A DNA stretch of 64,000 bases from the NCBI GenBank assembly GCA_951406725.2, contig OX597827.1, positions 47,244,001-47,308,000 on the forward strand. The letters run 5' to 3'. The notes beneath the pieces are model-generated. The model saw nothing but the letters and a program-made list of their open reading frames with translations. It ran no database searches and was not told the origin of the DNA. Numbering within the stretch: position 1 is the first letter of the stretch; each line of letters begins with the position of its first letter. Below, in pieces: positions 10,380 through 63,458 of the stretch. This DNA comes from Octopus vulgaris (taxonomy: Eukaryota). The translations under genes and the position numbers were made by a program.

Positions 10380-11077
10380 CGTGCTGGTACAGAACCGATG
10401 AGACACACCGGCACCACCAGCTTAAGAAGTTCACCACCCACGTAAAGTATTATTAACTATTTGGTGGGACAGGAAATATTTAGTCCACTTTGTACTTTTA
10501 AGCCCAAACCAAACGATAAAAAAAGGAGGTCTGCTGCGTGAATCTGAGCGGCTTGAGTCAGCGCTAGAAGGAAAAACGACCATCTTTGGTTTCAAGAGGA
10601 AAGTTGTTCTTCCATCAGAATAATGCTCCGCCACATACAGAGAGGATAACATTCCAAAGACTGTAGCAGTTTGAATGGGAAACGACGCTTCACCCACTAT
10701 ATTCGCTAGACATTACACAATCTGATTATAACTTATTCCGCAGTCTTCAAAATCATTTGGATGGAAAAAAATATGAATTCTGTAAACGAGGTCAGAACAG
10801 TACAGGAGGAGTATTTTTCGTTACGGATAAGCGAATTTTGGAAGTCTACCAGATAGATGGAAGAGCATTGAAGAAAATGAAGGGGTGTATATTTTAGATA
10901 AAAAAAGAACTTTGTTTATCTTAATTTTGTAAAAAAAAAAGAGGTATAAACAAAGCGCATTATATATAGGTTAACCCAATACATGAGTAAGTATGTATAT
11001 ATATATATATCACACACGGTACACACACACATATGTATTTATATAAAAAACCGCATTATTTATGGGATGACCCAATA
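10380..11077 (+). pseudogene. Mariner (DD34D) transposase C-terminal relic with right terminal inverted repeat
   Basis: Translates to HPRKVLLTIWWDRK, FHQNNAPPH and HPLYSLDITQSDYNLFRSLQNHLDGKK; ends CGCATTATTTATGGGATGACCCAA|TA. Confidence 0.85.
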
Positions 11078-13315: not shown

Positions 13316-13700
13316 GTGCAACCGAAAACCCATGTGTCTTTTAGGTCAGTTGAAAGCAGTTTGGGTATAAACTTGGCATGCACGCGTGTCATACCCAAAT
13401 CTTAAGCAATAATGGATTGAAATGAACCGGGTCTAATCTGCACAGCCTCTGAAAATTCATGGATGGTGATTCGACGATTTCTTCTCACAGATGAACGCAC
13501 ATATGCGATGTTGTTCTTAGTTCTGCTAGTTGCGGGTCTCCTAGAACTTTCGCCAATAACGACATTTTTCGGTCATTTCGCAAACGTCTGAGCGACTCAC
13601 AAACTTGTGTAAAGCTCATACATTCCTCTCCATAGACCTTCTGGAACATGGTGTGGGCCTCTGGGAAGGTATCGCCATGACAGCCTTTTCTGTCATGGTC
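13316..13700 (-). pseudogene. Mariner transposase N-terminal (HTH) relic
   Basis: Minus strand: EAHTMFQKVYGEECMS, RRPATSRT, VRRNRRITIHE and LGMTRVHAKFIPKLL (WVPHEL-equivalent). Confidence 0.75.
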
Positions 13701-14955
13701 ACACGTTATTCAACTACCTTCCAAGCACTGCTGTGACCAGCGGAAGTTAGCTAGAATATTAAAACTTAGTGCGTATAAATAATAGCGCTCAAGGTCAATC
13801 TGTACCCAACGGCTTTACTCTGTGCACTTTAGCGTCGTTACTATGGCAATAGTCCGGATACTTATTGATCAGAGCTCGTGTATATATATGTTTATATTCT
13901 TTTATTCTTTTACTTGTTTCAGTCATGCTCACGTTTACTGGAATGGGTAGCATTGCTGGTCTGATGATTAAAAACAACCAATCACTCGAAATCCATGTCC
14001 GACACTTTGGGGATAATCAGAGGCTTGAAAACCAAAGAAAGGTTCGTTAATCTTGAAATAACGGCGTTGTTATTGTTTTATGCTGTTTCTAATGCAAAAC
14101 TTCAAATAGTGCATCCAAGAGGTCAATATCTGATGTGTTGTTCTATTTTAACGTGGTAGGAGGAGGTTAGAGAAAAATGTAGCTGTTGTTTCTAACTAGT
14201 CGAAGAAAGAACAGAAAATCCTTCCACACCGATACCGTCTTAATCAAAATGGGTTTGCTACTCAACACTGTGAGTCATACATACATACATACATACATAT
14301 ATCTATATATCAATACACACACATATGTATATATTTATACATAAGCAAATATATGCATACATGAATAGTTCCATCCATTCGTGGACACAACATACTTAAC
14401 TATATACATATACATATCCGTACATAGAGACGTATACACTTGCATACATGCATACATGCACATCCGTATAAAACGAGATGTTTTAAAATATTTGGTGTGA
14501 TTGTTATGGAATCAACGCCCCAAAAAAACAAGAACACAATACGTCTGTGAGACACTCTGATAGATATCCGGTACCATATCGAGTTGATTCTCAACTTATT
14601 GTTCCTGCAGAAATGTGTCAATATATTCACCAGATCTAGGATTTTCTTAAAGGAATTTAGATCATCTAACAAAGGTTATATCTGGAGCTTATGATGTGCA
14701 TCACGCAAATATATTTATATTCCGATAATCTTTACATTTTATCTGTGTAATTAGCTACTACGGTCGTCTTTCTGTCTGTCACACTCTCTCTTTCCCTGTC
14801 TTTCTTTCTCCCCCCTCCCTCTCTCTTGCTCACTCTTTATACATTTATATTCATATATCTAGATATATCTATCTATCCGTCTATCTATATACACGTACAT
14901 ATGTATATGTGTGTGTGTATACATATATATACACACACAAATATATATATACATA

Positions 14956-15176: not shown

Positions 15177-17304
15177 TCTGCAAACAAATCTAAGTGTCGA
15201 ATCCCTAGAAATAGAAAATCTCTCATAAGGAAAATTAAAAGAATCAACAAAAAGATCAACATGCTGAAATACTGTCAACAGCAACACACCAACCTGACTG
15301 CCATCTCGTCGCTAGAGATTAAAAAAACATAAACTCCAAAACAACATGATGTCTATCATCAATAGTCAGCGAAGAGCTGGAGAGGCCTGGGCCATTGAGA
15401 AGATCAAACTCAATCCCAAAGTGTTCTTTTCATTTGCAAAAAAACACAGAGTCACTGGTTCTACTGTTGGCCCTCTGATTGATGAAAATGGTACTCTTCA
15501 AGACAATGCCAAAACCATGGGAGAGATATTGCAGAAACAATATTGCTCTGTTTTCAGCAATCCTGATATGACTGATCTGGGCTGTATCAGTGATGTTACT
15601 CCCCAATACACTTTATCGGACATAACATTTGGCGCTCCTGATGTCTTAGCAGCAATAAAGGAAATGAAGCATAATTCAGCAGTAGGTCCCGATAGGTTCC
15701 CTGCTTGTGTCTTGAAGATGTGTCAAAACCAACTTGCACCCCCTCTAGCCAATCTGTGGCGGAACTCACTGGATGCTGGATATATACCAGAGGACCTTCT
15801 ATCCCAGTCTGTTGTCCCAGTTTTCAAAAAAGGAAACAAATCGCTTGCCGTGAATTACCGTCCAATCTCACTCACCTCTCATATCATCAAGGTATTTGAG
15901 AGGGTGCTGAGATCGCGTATGACTCACTTCCTTGAGAGGCATAATATGCTGAACCCCAACCAGTATGGATTCCGTAATGGGAGAGATTGCCTGACGCAGC
16001 TACTGCATCATTTTGATGACATTTTGAGAGCCTTGGGAGAAGGTTCCAACACTGATGTCATCTACCTTGATTTCAGCAAGGCCTTTGACAGGGTTGATCA
16101 TAAGATCCTTCTGAGAAAGCTGTCCAATATTGGTGTCACTGGAAAGTTGCTGCAGTGGATCAAGTGCTTCCTGTCTAACAGAACCCAACATGTTGTAGTC
16201 GAAGGAGTCAAATCCAGCCCAGCCAAAGTCAGCAGTGGTGTCCCACAAGGCACTGTGTTGGGCCCACTTCTCTTCATCATCTACATAAATGATATTACTG
16301 ATACCATCAAACACAGTAACATCAGAACCTTCGCTGATGACTCCAAGCTCCAGAAGGTCATCAATGGCGTGGATGACCAAATAAACCTTCAGTCAGACCT
16401 ACTGGCTGTTGTCCAATGGGCGGAAAAGAATAACATGTTGCTAAATGAAGACAAATTTGAACTGATCCACTTTGGAAGGGAGGACGCTCTGAAACTCCCA
16501 TACTCTCTTTCTTCTGGAGAAATTCTCATGGCATCCAACAACATCAGAGACCTGGGAGTAACAGTGGACAACAACATAAGCTGGGCTACACATATAAGCA
16601 GCAAAGTTGACATGGCCCGCAGAATGTGTTCCTGGATTCTCAGAACCTTCCAGTCGAGAGATTCCCACGCTATTATCCTTCTCTTCTCCACTTTTGCCCG
16701 ACCCCACCTTGAATACTGCTGTCCACTGTGGTCTCCCTACACAAAACAAAATATTATGAGAATTGAAGCTCCCCAAAGGTCAATCACAAAAAAGATAGAT
16801 GGCATGTCAGACCTTGACTACTGGGGTAGACTAGAGAAGCTGAAATTGTATTCACTCCAACGACGCCGTGAACGCTACATTATCTGTATGATGTGGAAAA
16901 TATTCCACCAGCACTGTCCGAATGATGTTGGCATCACCTTCAAAATGCATCCAAGGCTTGGACCACGTGCCATCCGTCCACAACAAAAATCTAAATCGCA
17001 TCACATAACGACAATACGGCACAACTATTTCACCTCAATTGGACCTGCTCTCTTCAACATTACACCAGGGCACGTCAAAAAAGAAACTGACCACACAAAA
17101 TTCAAGAAGTCTTTGGACAAATTCCTTCAAACAGTACCGGACAAACCACCCACACCCGGATATGTCTCCGCAAACAATAACTCTCTGCTCGAATGGGCCT
17201 TGGTGCCCAAATCCTGAACTGAAAGACTTCACCAGGTGGTGCTATTAAGTTAGACATGGCCTGGGCCAATACTGGCCAAAACCTTTCTAAGTTATTCTAA
17301 GTTA
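15177..17304 (+). mobile_element. 5'-truncated CR1-group LINE inserted in (TA)n
   Basis: Contains the RT ORF; short 3' UTR ending in tandem (TTCTAAGTTA)x2 and then (TA)n; no endonuclease domain present. Confidence 0.9.
15346..17217 (+). CDS. Non-LTR retrotransposon ORF2 reverse transcriptase (CR1/L2 group), 623 aa, endonuclease missing
   Basis: GPD, NYRPISLTS, QYGFR, YLDFSKAFDRVDH, SGVPQGTVLGPLLFIIYIND, FADD, RDLGV, RPHLEYC..W.P and LYSLQRRRER motifs. Confidence 0.93.
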   Translation: MMSIINSQRRAGEAWAIEKIKLNPKVFFSFAKKHRVTGSTVGPLIDENGTLQDNAKTMGEILQKQYCSVFSNPDMTDLGCISDVTPQYTLSDITFGAPDVLAAIKEMKHNSAVGPDRFPACVLKMCQNQLAPPLANLWRNSLDAGYIPEDLLSQSVVPVFKKGNKSLAVNYRPISLTSHIIKVFERVLRSRMTHFLERHNMLNPNQYGFRNGRDCLTQLLHHFDDILRALGEGSNTDVIYLDFSKAFDRVDHKILLRKLSNIGVTGKLLQWIKCFLSNRTQHVVVEGVKSSPAKVSSGVPQGTVLGPLLFIIYINDITDTIKHSNIRTFADDSKLQKVINGVDDQINLQSDLLAVVQWAEKNNMLLNEDKFELIHFGREDALKLPYSLSSGEILMASNNIRDLGVTVDNNISWATHISSKVDMARRMCSWILRTFQSRDSHAIILLFSTFARPHLEYCCPLWSPYTKQNIMRIEAPQRSITKKIDGMSDLDYWGRLEKLKLYSLQRRRERYIICMMWKIFHQHCPNDVGITFKMHPRLGPRAIRPQQKSKSHHITTIRHNYFTSIGPALFNITPGHVKKETDHTKFKKSLDKFLQTVPDKPPTPGYVSANNNSLLEWALVPKS

Positions 17305-20267: not shown

Positions 20268-20318
<51 letters not shown>

Positions 20319-20321
<3 letters not shown>

Positions 20322-21364
20322 GAAAGAAGGTTTGAAAATGCAATTTAAAAGATGTTTATTTACTTAACCGGTTTCACGCGCACGGGCGGGCACGCATATA
20401 TACACACACTATCCTACCCCAAAAAATTCTTTAAACAACACACATCTATTTTCGCCACCCTGGAACCATTCAAAAACAGCCCCCCACACACGCAGACGCT
20501 TGTATACGTGTGTGTGCACTCACCTCCATACAGGCACATATATACACACGCAGCACCATGTCAAATGCCATCCACACTCATGCATGCGTACACACGCACG
20601 CACACACGCACACACGCACGCGCACACACGCACGCGCACACACACGCACACACAACACCATGACAACCACACACACTTGACAAACAGACGCCATCTGACC
20701 AAATACTACAGACACACAGACACATCTATTCACACACACGCAGAGAGACACACATATTCACCTCATCCTAACCCCAAAATCATTGATGCTTGAAGGAAAG
20801 CCAAAAACAGAAAAAACGGGTACATCTTTCTCAATTCTACATTCTGCTAAAACAGACAGGTCAGTAAACAAGCTCGCCTTGAATTCATAATATTCTGTAC
20901 TGACCCTGAGATGTATAATATATTTATTTTAATCTTTTCTGCCCATTTTTCAAATATTCTCATCATACTGTTGTACTTTCTTATGTCCTTAACATGTCCT
21001 TGTTACCAAAGACTGTATATATACATGTAATGTGGCAATTTGCAACAACCAATAATTAACGCAACCAAACTTCCAATAATATATTTGTTTTATTCTTTTC
21101 TGCGCATTTTTTCAAATATTCTCATCACATTGTTGTACATCTTTATGTCCTTAACATGTCCCTGTTACCAAAGACTGTATATATACATGTAATGTGGCAA
21201 TTATGTAAAAAACGTTTTTGAATTCATAATATTCTATGTTACTTTTGACAATCTTTTTCCAAAGAGTGAAACCGGTTAAGTAAATAAACATCTTTTAAAT
21301 TGCATTTTCTAACCTTCTTTCGTATATAATTCCACTCGTGCGATACCCCACAACTCAACTTTGT

Positions 21365-21404: not shown

Positions 21405-21726
21405 ATATATATATATCATCAGTATATGATTTAACGTATTAAACACAATTCAACAAGTTTATTCATATTTATGTAATGCAGGAAATTAGATGTTAAAATG
21501 GATTATAGCTATTATTATTAATGTTGCTATAAAATTTGTTTCATAAAAACAGACTCAGATATTCATAATAGAAAATCGGAACGGTCAAATTTGTACTCGT
21601 CGGCAGCTGGGAAAGAAAACTAAAAAAAGACGTTAGAAGTACATAAATTTTTTCTTAGTAATCATATTGTATTAATGTGTTCGTTCTTGGACTCATGCCT
21701 ATTTTAAACAAGACTAAAATCTATAT

Positions 21727-22065
21727 TGCAGCGTGAAAGGTGTTTATAAGCCATTTAAGAAACACACAAAACCGTTAGATTCACTTCAACATTTAAATTT
21801 AATTTGTCAAAATATTTTCGCCGCTTTGAGACCGCGACCTGTTCACAGACAAAACTTCGTACTGCATCTCATGAAGTTTTGTCAGTGACCAGGTCGCGGT
21901 CTCAAAGTGACGAAAATATTTTGACAAATTAAATTTAAATGTTGAAGTGAATCTAACGGTTTTGTGTTTTTCTTAAATGGCTTATAAACACCTTCCACGC
22001 TGCAATTATTTTCGTTCCAGCACACGATCTCAGATCAAGTCAATCGCTATGCAAGTACATCTCCG
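21727..22065. mobile_element. Fold-back (palindromic) element with 12-bp target-site duplication; two HHR-like motifs
   Basis: Arms 21725-21858 / 21873-22006; TAAAATCTATAT at 21715-21726 and 22066-22077; related copy at 50196-50445. Confidence 0.85.
21878..21928 (+). ncRNA. Hammerhead-like motif, G3-C8 core variant (mirror copy at 21803-21853, minus strand)
   Basis: tttgtca-GTGACCA-g gtcgc ggtctcaaa gtgac-GAAAA-ta-TTT-tgacaaa; 7-bp helix I. Confidence 0.55.
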
Positions 22066-33350: not shown

Positions 33351-33519
33351 AATATTAGGGAATGAATCCAAAATTACAGGGAAAAATCAGATTTAGGGTT
33401 AAATCCAATTTTATAGTAAAATATTATATAATATAATTCGAGACAAAACCACTATTTTAAAATCAAACAAGGAAAGACTTAATCAATACATAAAATTTTA
33501 ATATAAATTAAATAAACCG

Positions 33520-33563
33520 CCACTACAATTGTTTCCTGTCTGCTACCGACATTCTTCAGGTGG
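33520..33563 (-). ncRNA. Minimal hammerhead ribozyme
   Basis: ccac-CTGAAGA-a tgtc ggtagca gaca g-GAAAC-aatt-GTA-gtgg. Confidence 0.8.
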
Positions 33564-33628
33564 ATTTTCGATCTTCTAATCAGTATCAAATTACTTCATA
33601 ATTTGATACTGATTAGAAGATCGAAAAT

Positions 33629-33671
33629 CCACCTGAAGAATGTCGGTAGCAACAGGAAACAATTGTAGTGG
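33629..33671 (+). ncRNA. Minimal hammerhead ribozyme (inverted duplicate, 1-nt deletion in helix II)
   Basis: ccac-CTGAAGA-atgtcggtagcaacag-GAAAC-aatt-GTA-gtgg. Confidence 0.75.
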
Positions 33672-33752
33672 CGGTTTATTTAATTTATATTAAAATTTTA
33701 TGTATTGATTAAGTCTTTCCTTGTTTGATTTTAAAATAGTGGTTTTGTCTCG

Positions 33753-33864
<112 letters not shown>

Positions 33865-45179: not shown

Positions 45180-46608
45180 CAGTAGTTTTATTTTTATAGC
45201 GTGCTTTCACTTCACTACCGAGCGCAGCTCTGTGTGCCTTGGGTATGTGCTGTGATTTGTTGTGATGCTCTGATGGTTATTGTATGGAAAGTGTTCTGCG
45301 TAGGATCTGTGCAGTGCCTAGTAGTGCAATTTTCTGTATGTTATATGTGTTTGTAAGTCCTGGTGTTTTTGTTATGTATTTGTCTGAATATTTTTTTATC
45401 ATGCCTAATGCACCTACTATGATAGGAATTGTTTCTGTTTTCAGATTCCACATTCTAGTTACCTCTATTTCCAGGTCTTTGTATTTTGAGAGTTTCTCCA
45501 TTTCTTTTAGAGACACGTTGTCATCTGCCGGTATTGATACATCAATTAGAAAGCATTTTTTTCTTCATGATCTCTGACAACTATATCTGGTCTGTTGGCC
45601 TTAATTTCTCTATCTGTGTGTATCGGCATATCCCAGAGTATGGTTGCTTTCTCGTTTTCTGTGACCTTTTCTGGTGTGTGCCTATACCATCTTTTTTCTG
45701 TTGTTATTCCATAATGTTGGCATAGCTTCCAATGTATGTAGGTCCCAACTCTGTCATGTCTGTGAATATATTCCTTCTTAGCCAGGACTGGGCAGCTAGA
45801 GATAATATGATTTATTGTTTCTTGTCCATCTCCACATATTCTGCAGTTACTTGTAATATTTCTTTTCATTACATGTTTTTGGTAATTTCTGGTGGGGAGG
45901 CTTTGGTCTTGTGCTGCAATTAAAAATCCCTCTGTTTCTGCTTTGAGTCCTGAGCTTCTCAACCATTGCTGGGATTTTTCTTTGTCTATTTCTTTTGCGT
46001 TTAGTTTAGTCCAGTATTTACCATGAAGGGGCTTTTCTTGCCATCGTTTTATCATGGTTCGTTGCTGTTCTATTTTTAGTTTGGATTTCATTTGTTTTAT
46101 AGCTTTTGTTGTTTCTTCATCTTCTTCTTCTTCTTCATGTTTATTAGGTGGTATGATTTCTTGTTTGATTTGTCAGCTTCCTTAAATACTGAGAACAGTT
46201 TTTTGTTTTGCTCGTGTTTTGCCGCTATCTGGATCAGTTTTCCTTCCTTCTGAAGTAGATATTTTTGCAGTCCTATGGTGGTTATTTTATAGTAGTTTTC
46301 CAGCTGTATAAGGCCTCTACCACCTTCTATACGTTGTATATATAGTCTTTCTATGTCAGATTTTGGGTGATGCATCCTAGATCCTGTCATTATTTTTCTT
46401 GTTTTCCTATCTATTTTGGTCAGTTCATTTCGTGTCCAGTTAAGGATATTGTAGCTGTAACTTATAACTGGGACAGCTAAAGTGTTGATACCTATTATCT
46501 TGTTTTTAGCATTGAGCTCTGTGTTTAGTATTGATCTAACTCGTCTATAATATTCTTTTTTTATTTTCTCTTTCATTTGTGTGTGTTGTGTCTTATCTAG
46601 TTCATGGA
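45180..46608 (-). mobile_element. R4/Dong-clade non-LTR retrotransposon, 5'-truncated, inserted in (TAA)n
   Basis: Frameshifted ORFs 46097-46654, 45546-46091 and 45277-45516: GGRGL thumb, CRICGDGQETINHIISSC (CCHC), RHD, RPDIV and K..KY..L restriction-like endonuclease motifs; flanked by (TTA)n. Confidence 0.9.
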
Positions 46609-46693
46609 TTGCACTACTAGGCACTACACACATCCTACGCAGAACACTTTCCATACAATAACCATTATTATTATTATTATTATCATTATTATT

Positions 46694-47035
<342 letters not shown>

Positions 47036-48265: not shown

Positions 48266-49448
48266 CGAGGGGTCGTTCATTACAGACTTCTCCTGACTCA
48301 CGCCCAAGGACTGGGATAAACGAAACTTGGTATAATTATTAATCTTTTAACTTGGAAATTATCATTTAACTCATTATCCAAAAAATGATTCCCCTTCAAA
48401 AAAGACTTGGTTGGAAAGAGATGGAACTCAGATGGTGCGATGTCGGGAGAGTAAGATGGATGAGGAAGTATTTCATAGCCGCAGGTGTCTGCTTTCATCT
48501 CGGTAACATGCGCATTGTGAAATAGGGCATTTTGGAGGAGGTGGATTATATTGGTCAGCATGCCACGCCTTTCTCTTTTGATAGCGCCCCTCAATTTCTG
48601 CAGCGGAGACGCATAATATTCTCCATTTAAGGTGGTACTCTTTGCCAGAAAATCTATCATCACTACTTCTCGCTTGTCCCAAAAGACTGTGAGGATCACC
48701 ATGCCTGCTGAGGGTCGGGCACGAGCCTTGTTTGGAGGTGGTGAGTTATCATGCTTCCATTGCTCCGACTGGACTTTAGTCTCAGGATAATTGTAATGAC
48801 CCATGTTCCATCCTGTGTGATAAGTCGGCACCAAAAGTCCTCCTTGTTTTCTTGGCACATTGCCAAAAGAACCGAAGAGCAATTAACTCGTTCCTGCTTC
48901 AGAAAAAAGTGTGAGTATCCGAGGAATCTATCATGCAGGCATCTTCTGTGTGTGCAAATGGTCGTGAATGATGTTCTCCACGGACCCTACACTTATTATC
49001 ACACCTTGGGTAGTTGCCGAAAAGTTATGCGGTGATCCTCTAAAATGGTGGCTTCCACTTTATGAAAGATGCGTCATCAACGGAATGTGGCCGTCCGGGA
49101 ATAGGAAGAGTATGCACCGATGTTCGACCACATTTTAACTGGTAATAACAGTGCTTGACTCAGACGTATGATGGTGCATAGTCACGATAAATTTCTTTCA
49201 TTTCATTGAAAGTGTCTTTTGGTGTACGACCTCTCAAGTACAAGTACGTGATCACTGATCTGCATTCAACTGTCTCCATTGTAATACCTTAGTCAACTTC
49301 AGCAGCCGTAAAAGACAAAACGAAAACTAGTGGTAAACTGCAATTTACAATGTGACATGTAGAGACATGCATCATTATACCTATGCAAGTTTCGTTTCCT
49401 GCAATAAAAGAACGTGTGACAGTGGAAATCTTTAATGTACACGCTTCG
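48266..49448 (-). mobile_element. Mariner (DD34D) element, near full length, decayed
   Basis: ORF 48298-48882: WKHDNSPPP, VILTVFWD, HPSYSPDIAPSEFHLF; ends TA|CGAGGGG...GCTTCG|TA. Confidence 0.88.
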
Positions 49449-50195: not shown

Positions 50196-50445
50196 AGCAA
50201 TTGAAGCTTCGAAGATATTTGTTAGCCATTCAAACAACAAACCGTTAGATTCACTTCAACATTTAGATTTACTTAGTGTCAAAACATTTTCGTTGCTCTG
50301 AAACCGCCACCTTTTCACTGACAAAACTTCGTGCTGCATCTGTGTGTTCTTAAACAACTTACAATCATATTCCACGCTGCAATTGTATTTGTTCCAGCAC
50401 ACGATCTCAGATCAAGTTACTTGCTATGCAAGAGCTTCTCCGTAA
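50196..50445. mobile_element. Second, older copy of the 21727 fold-back HHR family
   Basis: Shares AAAACCGTTAGATTCACTTCAACATTTA, GACAAAACTTCGT and CAGCACACGATCTCAGATCAAG...CTCCGTAA. Confidence 0.8.
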
Positions 50446-52160
50446 CTTAATTTTCATTCGTGTCCGAATTTTTCATTGCTCGACCGGTATTACAGACAAA
50501 CTTTATCCAGGACAGACACCAGCTGACAGACCATATTTAACTAACAGAATATTTAATATGAAACTTAGGGATCTCTTGCATGATATTTTGAAGAAGTATG
50601 TTTTGGGAGAGGTTACATGGTACATGTAGACTATAGAGTTTCAAGAGGGTGGACAATTTCTTTGTCATATATTCATATTAAAACAATGGTCCAGAACATT
50701 ATGATAAATTTATTAATGCAGAACTTCCAAATTTACAAACACAACCAATTCTGTTGCAGCATATCACCAAAAGAAGTTACACGGTCCATATGGAAGAGAT
50801 AAACCCAATGCAACATGTATGGTTAATGGGAAATGTAAAAAAACATTGGATCTTTTCGGTTTGAACAGCAGTTTTTTAAAATAATTTGCACGTAACTAAA
50901 CACTTTTAAACTTCGTATACTGGTAGAATGTGTTTATAAAACATCTTTTTCTCTTGTCTTTATTGAGAAAATACAATAGTTTGTAAGATATTTGTTGTTT
51001 TTTTTTCTTCAATTTCTGCAATTTCAAACCAATCAATGACGTCTATTTTAGGTGAAAACATTCTGTGCCGTATGAATATGTCACTCGTTTAAGAAACAGG
51101 TTGGGTTTATTTACATTTGTGAAGAAAAAAAGATACCTTTACCCCCACCGCTAACCCTAACCCTAACCTTAACTAACCCTAACCCTAAATCAGATGGAAG
51201 TGCAATAGATCGATACTAGGGTCATACTTATGGGTGACAATTTCATATGACACCGCTAGAAAAAAACTGCCGTTCAAACCGAAAAGATCCAAAACATTTC
51301 CCTAAAGACTTTCAGGAAAATACATTACACAGTTATAATGCCTATCCACTTTATCGTCGTCGAAATAATGGTTTTACATTTACAAAGTCTAATGTTGAAT
51401 AAGATAATCGTTCAGGAGTATCATATTCCTCCTTCCTTTCAGTCAAATATGAAGGTCATTGTAATGTAGAGATATACCCATCTGTAAAATCGGTTAAATA
51501 TAATTAGCAAATATATTCATAAAGATCATGATCCGGTGACAGTCAATATTGGTGGACAAACCAATGCCCAACAAACACCCAGAGATGAAACTGAAAATTA
51601 TATCAATGGCCGCTATGTATCCTCATCAGAGACAGTCTGGAGGGTTTTATGGTTCAAATTACATGGTTCATATCCTGCAGTCCAACACGTTACAGTTCAT
51701 TTACCCCCAACAACAATACATTTACTTTAATGATGATGATGATATTGAACATATTATCCAAACACATGACAAGTCCACTTACACAATCCTGATTTCCCTG
51801 AATTTTACACATGGAATAATAATCAGAAAATGTGACATCTCTGAAAAGCTAATACACACTCAACTAGGCGTATCTACTTTCGTTCACCAAAGGAACAAGA
51901 GTGACTCAATCTGAGAGCTTTATTCTATCATATTCCCGAAGTTAAATCATTCGAAGATATGAGGACTATTGATGATGAAGTTTGCCATAATTACAAAGAG
52001 GCTGAAACGAAACTGGTTTTAGCACATGATGACCGTGAATACTATCGGACTATGGAGTTTGCAAATAATTCAGCTAATCCATATCAGCTGCGAAGACTTT
52101 TCTGCTCCATTCTTATTTACTGCATTCTATATGTATACTTACGTATATATCTTACACAAT
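50446..52160 (+). pseudogene. Helitron RepHel fragment (Rep domain and downstream linker)
   Basis: PGQTPADRP..TNRIFNMKL, IEFQ, HGPYG, CMVNGKCKK..FPKDF, YPLYRRRNNG, KYEGHCNVE, SVKY, KYIHK, DE...YINGRYVSSSE..WR and HGSYPAVQH..VHLP motifs, with frameshifts. Confidence 0.88.
50848..51290. mobile_element. MITE with 30-bp terminal inverted repeats and 8-bp target-site duplication (Merlin-like)
   Basis: GGATCTTTTCGGTTTGAACAGCAGTTTTTT / AAAAAACTGCCGTTCAAACCGAAAAGATCC; AAAACATT at 50840-50847 and 51291-51298. Confidence 0.9.
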
Positions 52161-52213
52161 TTTATGATACAATGTAAAATACGCTTGCTTAAAGATAGCG
52201 TATTCACACTAGT

Positions 52214-54176: not shown

Positions 54177-54608
54177 GACGACTATCCGCATTTAAGAAAC
54201 TAAAATGGCACTAGTACAAATATCCCTACAGTGACTAAAAGTGCAGATGAACACCAGCATTGGTACACGTAATGGTTAAAACAACTCTTAGCCACTGGCA
54301 AGCACTTCTCTCCTGACTGAAAAGGGAATCCAAACTCCACAAACAAGCGAAGGGTGTGATATCATTGACGATTTCGGATTGAGGAGTTGTGTTGATTCTT
54401 ATTTCTAGTAATTGCTGCTGATTTTCACCTGTAGTCACTCTAGAGACGTTTGCATGTGTTTGTATGCGTGTGTATGCATACATATATATATAATATATAT
54501 ATATATGTATTTGTACATTTTTATCATTATTCTTTTGCAAAAAACAATGCAATTTTCTTTTTTACCCCTTTCTAATTTAAAAAAAAAACAAACCTTTTAA
54601 AACATAAA

Positions 54609-54649
54609 TATTCTTGACAAGTCATACAATGACGAAAACCGGTTGAATA
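54609..54649 (+). ncRNA. Minimal hammerhead-like motif, U3-A8 variant
   Basis: tattc-TTGACAA-gtcat aca atgac-GAAA-accggtt-gaata, followed by (TA)n. Confidence 0.55.
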
Positions 54650-54740
54650 AATATATATATATATAGTTTATCAATTTCTCATTTTATTAAAATTTTCTTT
54701 CATTTGAGCATTCTGCATTTTTAAAAAATTTTTTCCTTAC

Positions 54741-62790: not shown

Positions 62791-62949
62791 ATGTTGTGCA
62801 AAAGAGATCAACGATAAATAATTAGAAAAAAAGTCTTTGGTTTTACTGCTACCGTTTGTATAATTCCACGTCGAGCCATATTTATTTATTCATTTACTTA
62901 TTAATACCAAACGGGCAAACAATGTGAATTGTTGAGAAGAATAGTGGTA

Positions 62950-63458
62950 TAAGCACTTGGGAATGCGAAAGTACTTGGGAATACTGGAGTCGGAGAAATG
63001 TAAGATTTTGTGGAACTTTTCTATTCAAACGGACAAGAAATTAGAAAATGATCGACTAGAAATAACGACTATAGACAAGGGAAACAGAAGTTGTTTACTT
63101 ACCGACCGATCAAGCCCGTTTGATTCAAGGATCGCAAAGAAAGAGGAAGAAAGAATATACAATCCTTTAAAGTTTGGAGCATACCAACAGTAAAGGTCGT
63201 ACCTATGGTAATTGGTGCGTTGAGAACAGTAAGCCAAGATATAGACATATGACTGGAGGAGATTGTAATAAGATGCCCGGTAGAGCTCCTACAGAAAGTT
63301 TGTCTCTTAGAGACAGCAAGAATTATCAAGAGGATTCTTAGCACTTGAAAGACTTCTGAAAACTTGTGCGTACCTAAGGTTACAAGTAGTAACCCTCTAT
63401 TCACATAATTCTTACCAGGATTAAGACCGAACCTGTGCCTAACCAAAATAATAATAAT
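62950..63458 (+). pseudogene. Diverged R4/Dong-type endonuclease 3' end with (TAA) tail
   Basis: KILWNFSIQTDKKLENDRLEI..IDK, PFDSRIAKKEEE, KVVPMVIGAL and LLQKVCLLETARIIKRIL parallel the 45277-46091 element. Confidence 0.75.

Follow-up and report, generated by a model that had tools for sequence, protein, structure and literature searches.

Two short motifs in a 64-kb window of the octopus genome (the window being the whole stretch of DNA analysed) are real hammerhead copies of the Penelope-like-element kind, present above chance. Each is probably a minimal type I hammerhead located at the 3' (pseudo-LTR) end of a truncated Penelope-like insertion, with U3-A8 fixed in the source elements and the copies in the window being inert relics. 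The canonical C3-G8 pair (CUGANGA) is absent from both, which instead read UUGACAA, a published variant.

Site 1 (21239-21283, plus strand) was defined by descriptor matching, hammerhead numbering and control sets. Its helix I of 6 bp (21239-21244/21278-21283) leads into the core UUGACAA, with U3 at 21245, A8 at 21250 and A9 at 21251. GAAA starts at G12 (21268), the palindrome ACCGGT occupies 21271-21276 and N17 is U (21277), the predicted cleavage point being the 21277/21278 junction. Helix II has a U10.1·U11.1 mismatch at its base (21252/21267), followed by five pairs including one U·G. A perfect tcttt/aaaga hairpin was considered as helix II and rejected because two bases would be left ahead of G12. 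The sequence AATAAA lies directly 3' of the motif (21283-21288, plus strand).

Site 2 (54609-54649, plus strand), defined in the same way, has a 5-bp helix I (54609-54613/54645-54649), the core UUGACAA at 54614-54620 (U3 at 54614, A8 at 54619), a 5-bp helix II (54621-54625/54629-54633) with G10.1-C11.1, the palindrome ACCGGT at 54638-54643 and U as N17 (54644). It carries GAAAA (54634-54638), that is, one surplus A in GAAA, and the alternative register is without N17. Both sites contain the invariant hammerhead core U4 G5 A6, A9, G12 A13 A14 and A15.1-U16.1 in order, satisfy the requirement for H at position 17 and share a very short palindromic helix III (ACCGGT), a mark of dimer-type Penelope-like hammerheads. 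As read from the sequence, U3 and A8 would form a Watson–Crick pair at both. The first-pass annotation had placed and spelled both motifs correctly. Its statement that the helices pair was borne out for both helices I and for helix II of site 2 but needs qualification at site 1, where helix II opens with U10.1·U11.1; the GAAA of its proposed descriptor stands at site 1 but not, given the surplus A, at site 2.

The excess over chance was assessed with a descriptor leaving positions 3 and 8 free, which was composed after the motifs were known, yet was the same for the shuffles. It matched 4 loci in the window compared with 0.09 per window in 200 local dinucleotide shuffles. All four loci are Watson–Crick at 3:8 (U-A twice, G-C and C-G), compared with about 0.01 such loci per window in the shuffles, and no strict U3-A8 match occurred in the 200 local dinucleotide shuffles. 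A core-plus-palindrome pattern common to both sites, and built from sites 1 and 2 themselves, gave 2 matches in the window versus 0 in 100 shuffles. Metagenome matches to this pattern served as a null set (n = 120 among the matches listed). None of these 120 had a helix I of at least 5 bp and none had both helices of at least 4 bp, while the helix I/II lengths are 6/5 bp at site 1 and 5/5 bp at site 2. These controls are probably higher in G+C, a bias that the local shuffles offset, and the 120 listed matches included no true relative of either site. Folding z-scores of the motifs were unremarkable (0.22 to 1.18).

The expectation that canonical searches would miss the variant was confirmed. 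Local scans with Rfam covariance models at E up to 10 gave 8, 4 and 1 matches, with no hammerhead among them. Over the whole window, the 150 of 223 Rfam matches listed comprised microRNA-type models on microsatellites or hairpins and one viral UTR model, again with no hammerhead.

Variation in the site-1 family was examined by aligning contigs of four of the 24 sequencing runs listed, one for each of four organism labels, to 21041-21364 at 80% likeness (679, 415, 734 and 205 contigs per run). Contig depth in these alignments is not copy number, similar copies are favoured and the threshold for variation was 3% of depth. U3 (21245) and A8 (21250) showed no alternative letter at 3% or more in any of the four runs, and the same was true of the other core positions and of the U·U pair. 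Because U3 and A8 are unvarying at this threshold, U3-A8 is the family state of site 1 and not private decay. The family consensus, which the first-pass annotation had proposed to check for CUGANGA, is therefore not CUGANGA at site 1.

Four positions within the 45-nt motif pass the 3% threshold. At position 17, A accounts for 90, 46, 27 and 45% of depth in the four runs and C for 8, 7, 53 and 13%, with U making up the rest and G not listed. This pattern fits the NUH rule, which calls for H, not G, at position 17 (PMC8495972); taken alone, G would be the missing letter by chance about once in four. The change 21264 G>A (up to 28%) converts U·G to U-A and 21282 A>G (up to 15%) converts U-A to U·G, so that both pairs are kept, while 21274 G>A (3.6%, one run) disrupts the palindrome. 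Across the 324 positions of 21041-21364, only 16 reach this level of variation, and for this reason the invariance of U3/A8 establishes a consensus but tests selection poorly. The earlier proposal of a selected lineage thus holds as far as the family state is concerned (4/4 runs) but is only weakly probed by invariance. Decayed family copies are present among the loose ends of contigs. Many family copies skip 21073/21075-21236 or repeat a 44-bp unit, so that the sequence preceding the site-1 hammerhead is modular.

Site 1 lies at the end of an insertion of about 1 kb between TA tracts. The CA-rich body (20378-21238, plus strand) contains a 127-bp duplication (20915-21040/21076-21202). Overlapping the hammerhead is the right arm of a 63-bp inverted repeat (21266-21328, plus strand), which includes GAAA, helix III and the 3' strand of helix I. 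The left arm (20315-20377, minus strand; 62/63 identical) is an inverted, 5'-truncated copy of the element end that abuts the TA tract and holds only the 3' half of the hammerhead. Beyond the right arm, a one-sided extension or tail of 36 bp (21329-21364, plus strand) runs up to a TA tract, and the contig pieces listed frequently stop at 21326-21328 or continue to 21361-21364. Site 2 is contained in a stub of about 235 bp between two TA tracts (54507-54740, plus strand, as the putative limits of the element), which also has AATAAA at 54646-54651.

An inverted 5'-truncated copy, a one-sided tail of 30-40 bp and (TA)n targets have been described in Penelope-like elements (PMC8557442), the tail being the stretch between two reverse-transcription starts (PMC11167929). 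All three features are found at site 1, and the TA flanks alone at site 2. The architecture of the site-1 insertion (inverted partial copy, 36-bp tail and TA tracts) therefore suggests Penelope-like parentage, an assignment drawn from architecture because no Penelope-type protein frame or parent was found. Two further hammerhead families in the window likewise lie within inverted pairs. The description of the two hammerheads as unrelated proved accurate for their flanks: homology was rejected by a shuffle comparison in which 360/500 (upstream) and 63/500 (downstream) shuffles scored equally well. Nevertheless, sites 1 and 2 may still descend from one U3-A8 ancestor, as differing flanks are not proof of two origins.

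Inverted arms that are 62/63 identical, TATA at both outer ends and mariner fragments elsewhere in the window would also be expected of a MITE, a non-autonomous DNA transposon, inserted at TA and ending in inverted repeats of 63 bp, in which the hammerhead shape would be incidental. This origin is highly improbable. The repeat family extends 36 bp past one arm only (depth in 30/30 bins, 4/4 runs), the motif straddles the inner boundary of the arm, the unrelated site-2 stub shares the core and palindrome, and both the descriptor shuffles and the metagenome set speak against coincidence. The families might otherwise be monomers of non-LTR retrozymes, that is, non-coding tandem units spread via circular RNA rather than truncated coding elements. 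Retrozymes have type I hammerheads, occur as monomers and, in a preprint connecting them with pseudo-LTRs, are proposed to derive from the latter (10.64898/2026.07.22.740005); the lack of a coding frame among the 152 frames searched is in keeping with this. Nevertheless, the window contains no head-to-tail units with repeated hammerheads, and the inverted copy with a tail is a Penelope-like signature (PMC8557442), making a retrozyme origin improbable. Truncated Penelope-like insertions remain the preferred reading.

The Pfam scan covered 16 + 136 = 152 frames; of the 222 frames passing the filter, the 72 shortest were left out. It detected LINE, mariner and Helitron pieces and nothing Penelope-type, with no Penelope-type protein, reverse transcriptase or GIY-YIG domain linked to either site, the stubs being very short. 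Three frames of the site-1 insertion body gave no Pfam match. Searches for a parent ORF using the short frames behind the hammerheads yielded no candidate, one apparent match being rejected as a repeat artefact. A 22-codon open frame, lacking an ATG in this copy (21299-21364, plus strand), begins just 3' of the site-1 hammerhead and extends across the tail, in the place expected for the beginning of a Penelope-like ORF; searches gave no real homologue. Elsewhere in the window, a 633-codon open frame (15316-17217, plus strand) encodes a LINE-type reverse transcriptase (Pfam RVT_1) that by appearance is not Penelope-type. Frameshifted LINE fragments, with a putative resemblance to R4/Dong elements, lie at 45277-46720 (minus strand; Pfam zf-RVT at 45549-46172) and 62945-63288. 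Mariner-type transposase fragments were seen at 48298-48986 (minus strand), 10426-10620 (plus strand) and 13488-13709 (minus strand), with Pfam Transposase_1 and weak HTH_48 matches. A local duplication of several hundred bases (36042-36416/36562-36840) gives two near-identical frames with no Pfam match.

The remaining two loci matched by the free descriptor carry other 3:8 pairs. The first, at 21878-21928 (plus strand), has a G3-C8 core (G3 at 21885, C8 at 21890), a 7-bp helix I, a bulged G after A9, a 5-bp helix II with G10.1-C11.1 and the palindrome AATATT. Its inverted mate (21803-21853, minus strand; G3 at 21846) retains G3-C8 and has one mismatch at the base of helix I; the mates differ at two positions in helix II, with pairing retained. 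Together they sit in an inverted pair (21725-22006) with a one-sided extension to about 22068. In a third, more diverged family copy near 50318 (about 50276-50325, minus strand) the pair is broken (G3·A8), which leaves 2 of 3 family copies with G3-C8. An ATG frame of 37 codons runs from 21977 through the one-sided extension, and a Helitron fragment (50490-52180, plus strand; Pfam Helitron_like_N) adjoins the third copy.

The second locus (33520-33563, minus strand) is a canonical C3-G8 hammerhead-like motif with a weak helix II and the palindrome ACAATTGT. Its mate lies at 33629-33671 (plus strand). Both are part of a 352-bp inverted pair (33421-33772, 97%) bordered by TA tracts. Each arm bears a canonical CUGAAGA motif, and the left arm alone is longer by about 70 bases. 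Three different 3:8 pairs (U-A, G-C and C-G) thus occur in one 64-kb window.

In the mechanism proposed here, the source elements would carry a fixed U3-A8 in place of C3-G8, preserving the tertiary 3:8 pair. In a transcript with tandem source copies, the ACCGGU palindrome would let two of them pair as a double hammerhead, which would cut after position 17, weakly or only when aided by the element's protein. Working ribozymes would then be those of tandem source elements, the genomic copies in the window being presumptive lone, non-coding relics. Helix III has a single base pair, and monomer hammerhead folds are unstable (+4.8 kcal/mol for site 1 and +2.2 kcal/mol for site 2). Double-hammerhead folds are stable (−10.7 and −15.9 kcal/mol, respectively, with tertiary contacts outside the model), while the homodimer minima are lower at −20.7 and −18.9 kcal/mol, leaving the double hammerhead above them by 10 kcal/mol at site 1 and 3 kcal/mol at site 2. 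A dimer mode with low in vitro activity has been proposed for such hammerheads (PMC4209133; PMC6765202).

No second copy on the same strand was found near either site, site 1 having only the opposite-strand half copy. A read-through transcript of the site-1 insertion is predicted to form a 63-bp duplex (−91 kcal/mol) that could bury the 3' half of the motif. On these models, both genomic copies are probably inert and do not cut. The earlier description as probably functional is reasonable for the source elements of the family but doubtful for both copies themselves, because each is alone on its strand, requires a dimer to fold and carries an extra flaw.

Alternatively, the motifs might be of Penelope-type ancestry yet have no catalytic activity even in the source elements, with U3-A8 inherited from one founder and the motif retained for another role such as protein binding. 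Minimal hammerheads of Penelope-like elements are weakly active in vitro (PMC4209133), and in an anole element insertion was unaffected by core mutants and the cut site coincided with no read ends (PMC11167929). Moreover, the pair probability of helix II in context is merely 0.03-0.05 at site 1, compared with 0.74-0.98 at site 2. We nevertheless consider vestigial source elements unlikely, although deserving of weight, given that position 17 is limited to A, C and U, that both helix variants retain pairing, and that 4/4 descriptor matches are Watson–Crick at 3:8 compared with about 0.01 of 0.09 per shuffle. For site 2 taken separately, the chances are only slightly below even that the copy has decayed or been mis-assembled (through slippage in an A-run) and is alone uninformative on selection: the surplus A lies within a homopolymer and the window has one copy only. 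Against this, both helices are intact, with G10.1-C11.1, and an insertion in the GAAA region has been described as more readily accommodated (PMC3088659).

The C3-G8 pair is established, and G3-C8 is known as an engineered rescue (PMC3884650). The variant is not novel. In 2011, U3-A8 and a U10.1·U11.1 mismatch were each reported from natural hammerheads (Perreault et al., PMC3088659), and site 1 combines the two; an axolotl family with U·U at the base of helix II has also been described (PMC7229834). About 1,300 minimal U3-A8 hammerheads were retrieved from Schistosoma Penelope-like elements by a dedicated descriptor, and two are present in the supplement (PMC4209133). These Cercyon hammerheads of Schistosoma mansoni (Cervera and de la Pena 2014, PMC4209133) resemble the octopus sites in being type I, in U3-A8 covariation and palindromic helix III, and in AU-rich flanks, a mostly dispersed single-motif distribution and predicted dimer cleavage. 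Unlike them, sites 1 and 2 have a helix III with a 4-nt palindromic loop (ACCGGU) and lack a bulged base where A9 meets helix II. Site 1 further differs by U10.1·U11.1 and site 2 by the surplus A, and no parent ORF was seen in the window.

The anole Poseidon element PAc (Frangieh et al. 2024, PMC11167929) shares a hammerhead at the pseudo-LTR end, AT-rich targets and a 30-40 bp tail. It differs in having a C3-G8 core and an intact ORF starting at stem II, its G3-C8 form being engineered. Single mutants at position 3 or 8 of the PAc hammerhead were dead and the double mutant was partly rescued; the ribozyme cut only with the element's protein and was dispensable for insertion in vitro (PMC11167929). 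Type I hammerheads of animal non-LTR retrozymes likewise have a one-pair helix III with a palindromic tetraloop but differ in occurring in short tandem repeats and in loop 1–loop 2 contacts, neither of which is seen here (PMC7229834). Molluscs are represented in the available part of the PMC4209133 supplement by Lottia and Crassostrea, with octopus absent from that part. In the accessible text of an octopus repeat annotation, Penelope families are named and the word ribozyme does not appear (PMC13282606). Among the papers listed, the literature search found no report of octopus hammerheads. It found G3-C8 in the accessible text of its sources only as an engineered rescue (PMC3884650, PMC11167929, PMC8495972), a result that does not establish the absence of natural G3-C8 from print.

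The U3-A8 variant is of a kind already published, to which sites 1 and 2 add two Penelope-type examples. What the site-1 family contributes is family-level evidence across four organism labels, with U3-A8 fixed and the cut-site rule obeyed. CUGANGA descriptors and Rfam undercount such motifs. More useful is the natural 3:8 covariation series within 64 kb, above all the G3-C8 family; it is relevant to the questions of in vivo cleavage by these ribozymes and of their retention by the elements. We tentatively suggest, as a possibility short of an even chance, that one animal genome hosts separate Penelope-like families with C-G, U-A and G-C at 3:8, including a natural, active G3-C8 family. If true, this would provide a ready natural series in which to study how dimer cleavage is tuned by the 3:8 pair and by the element's protein.
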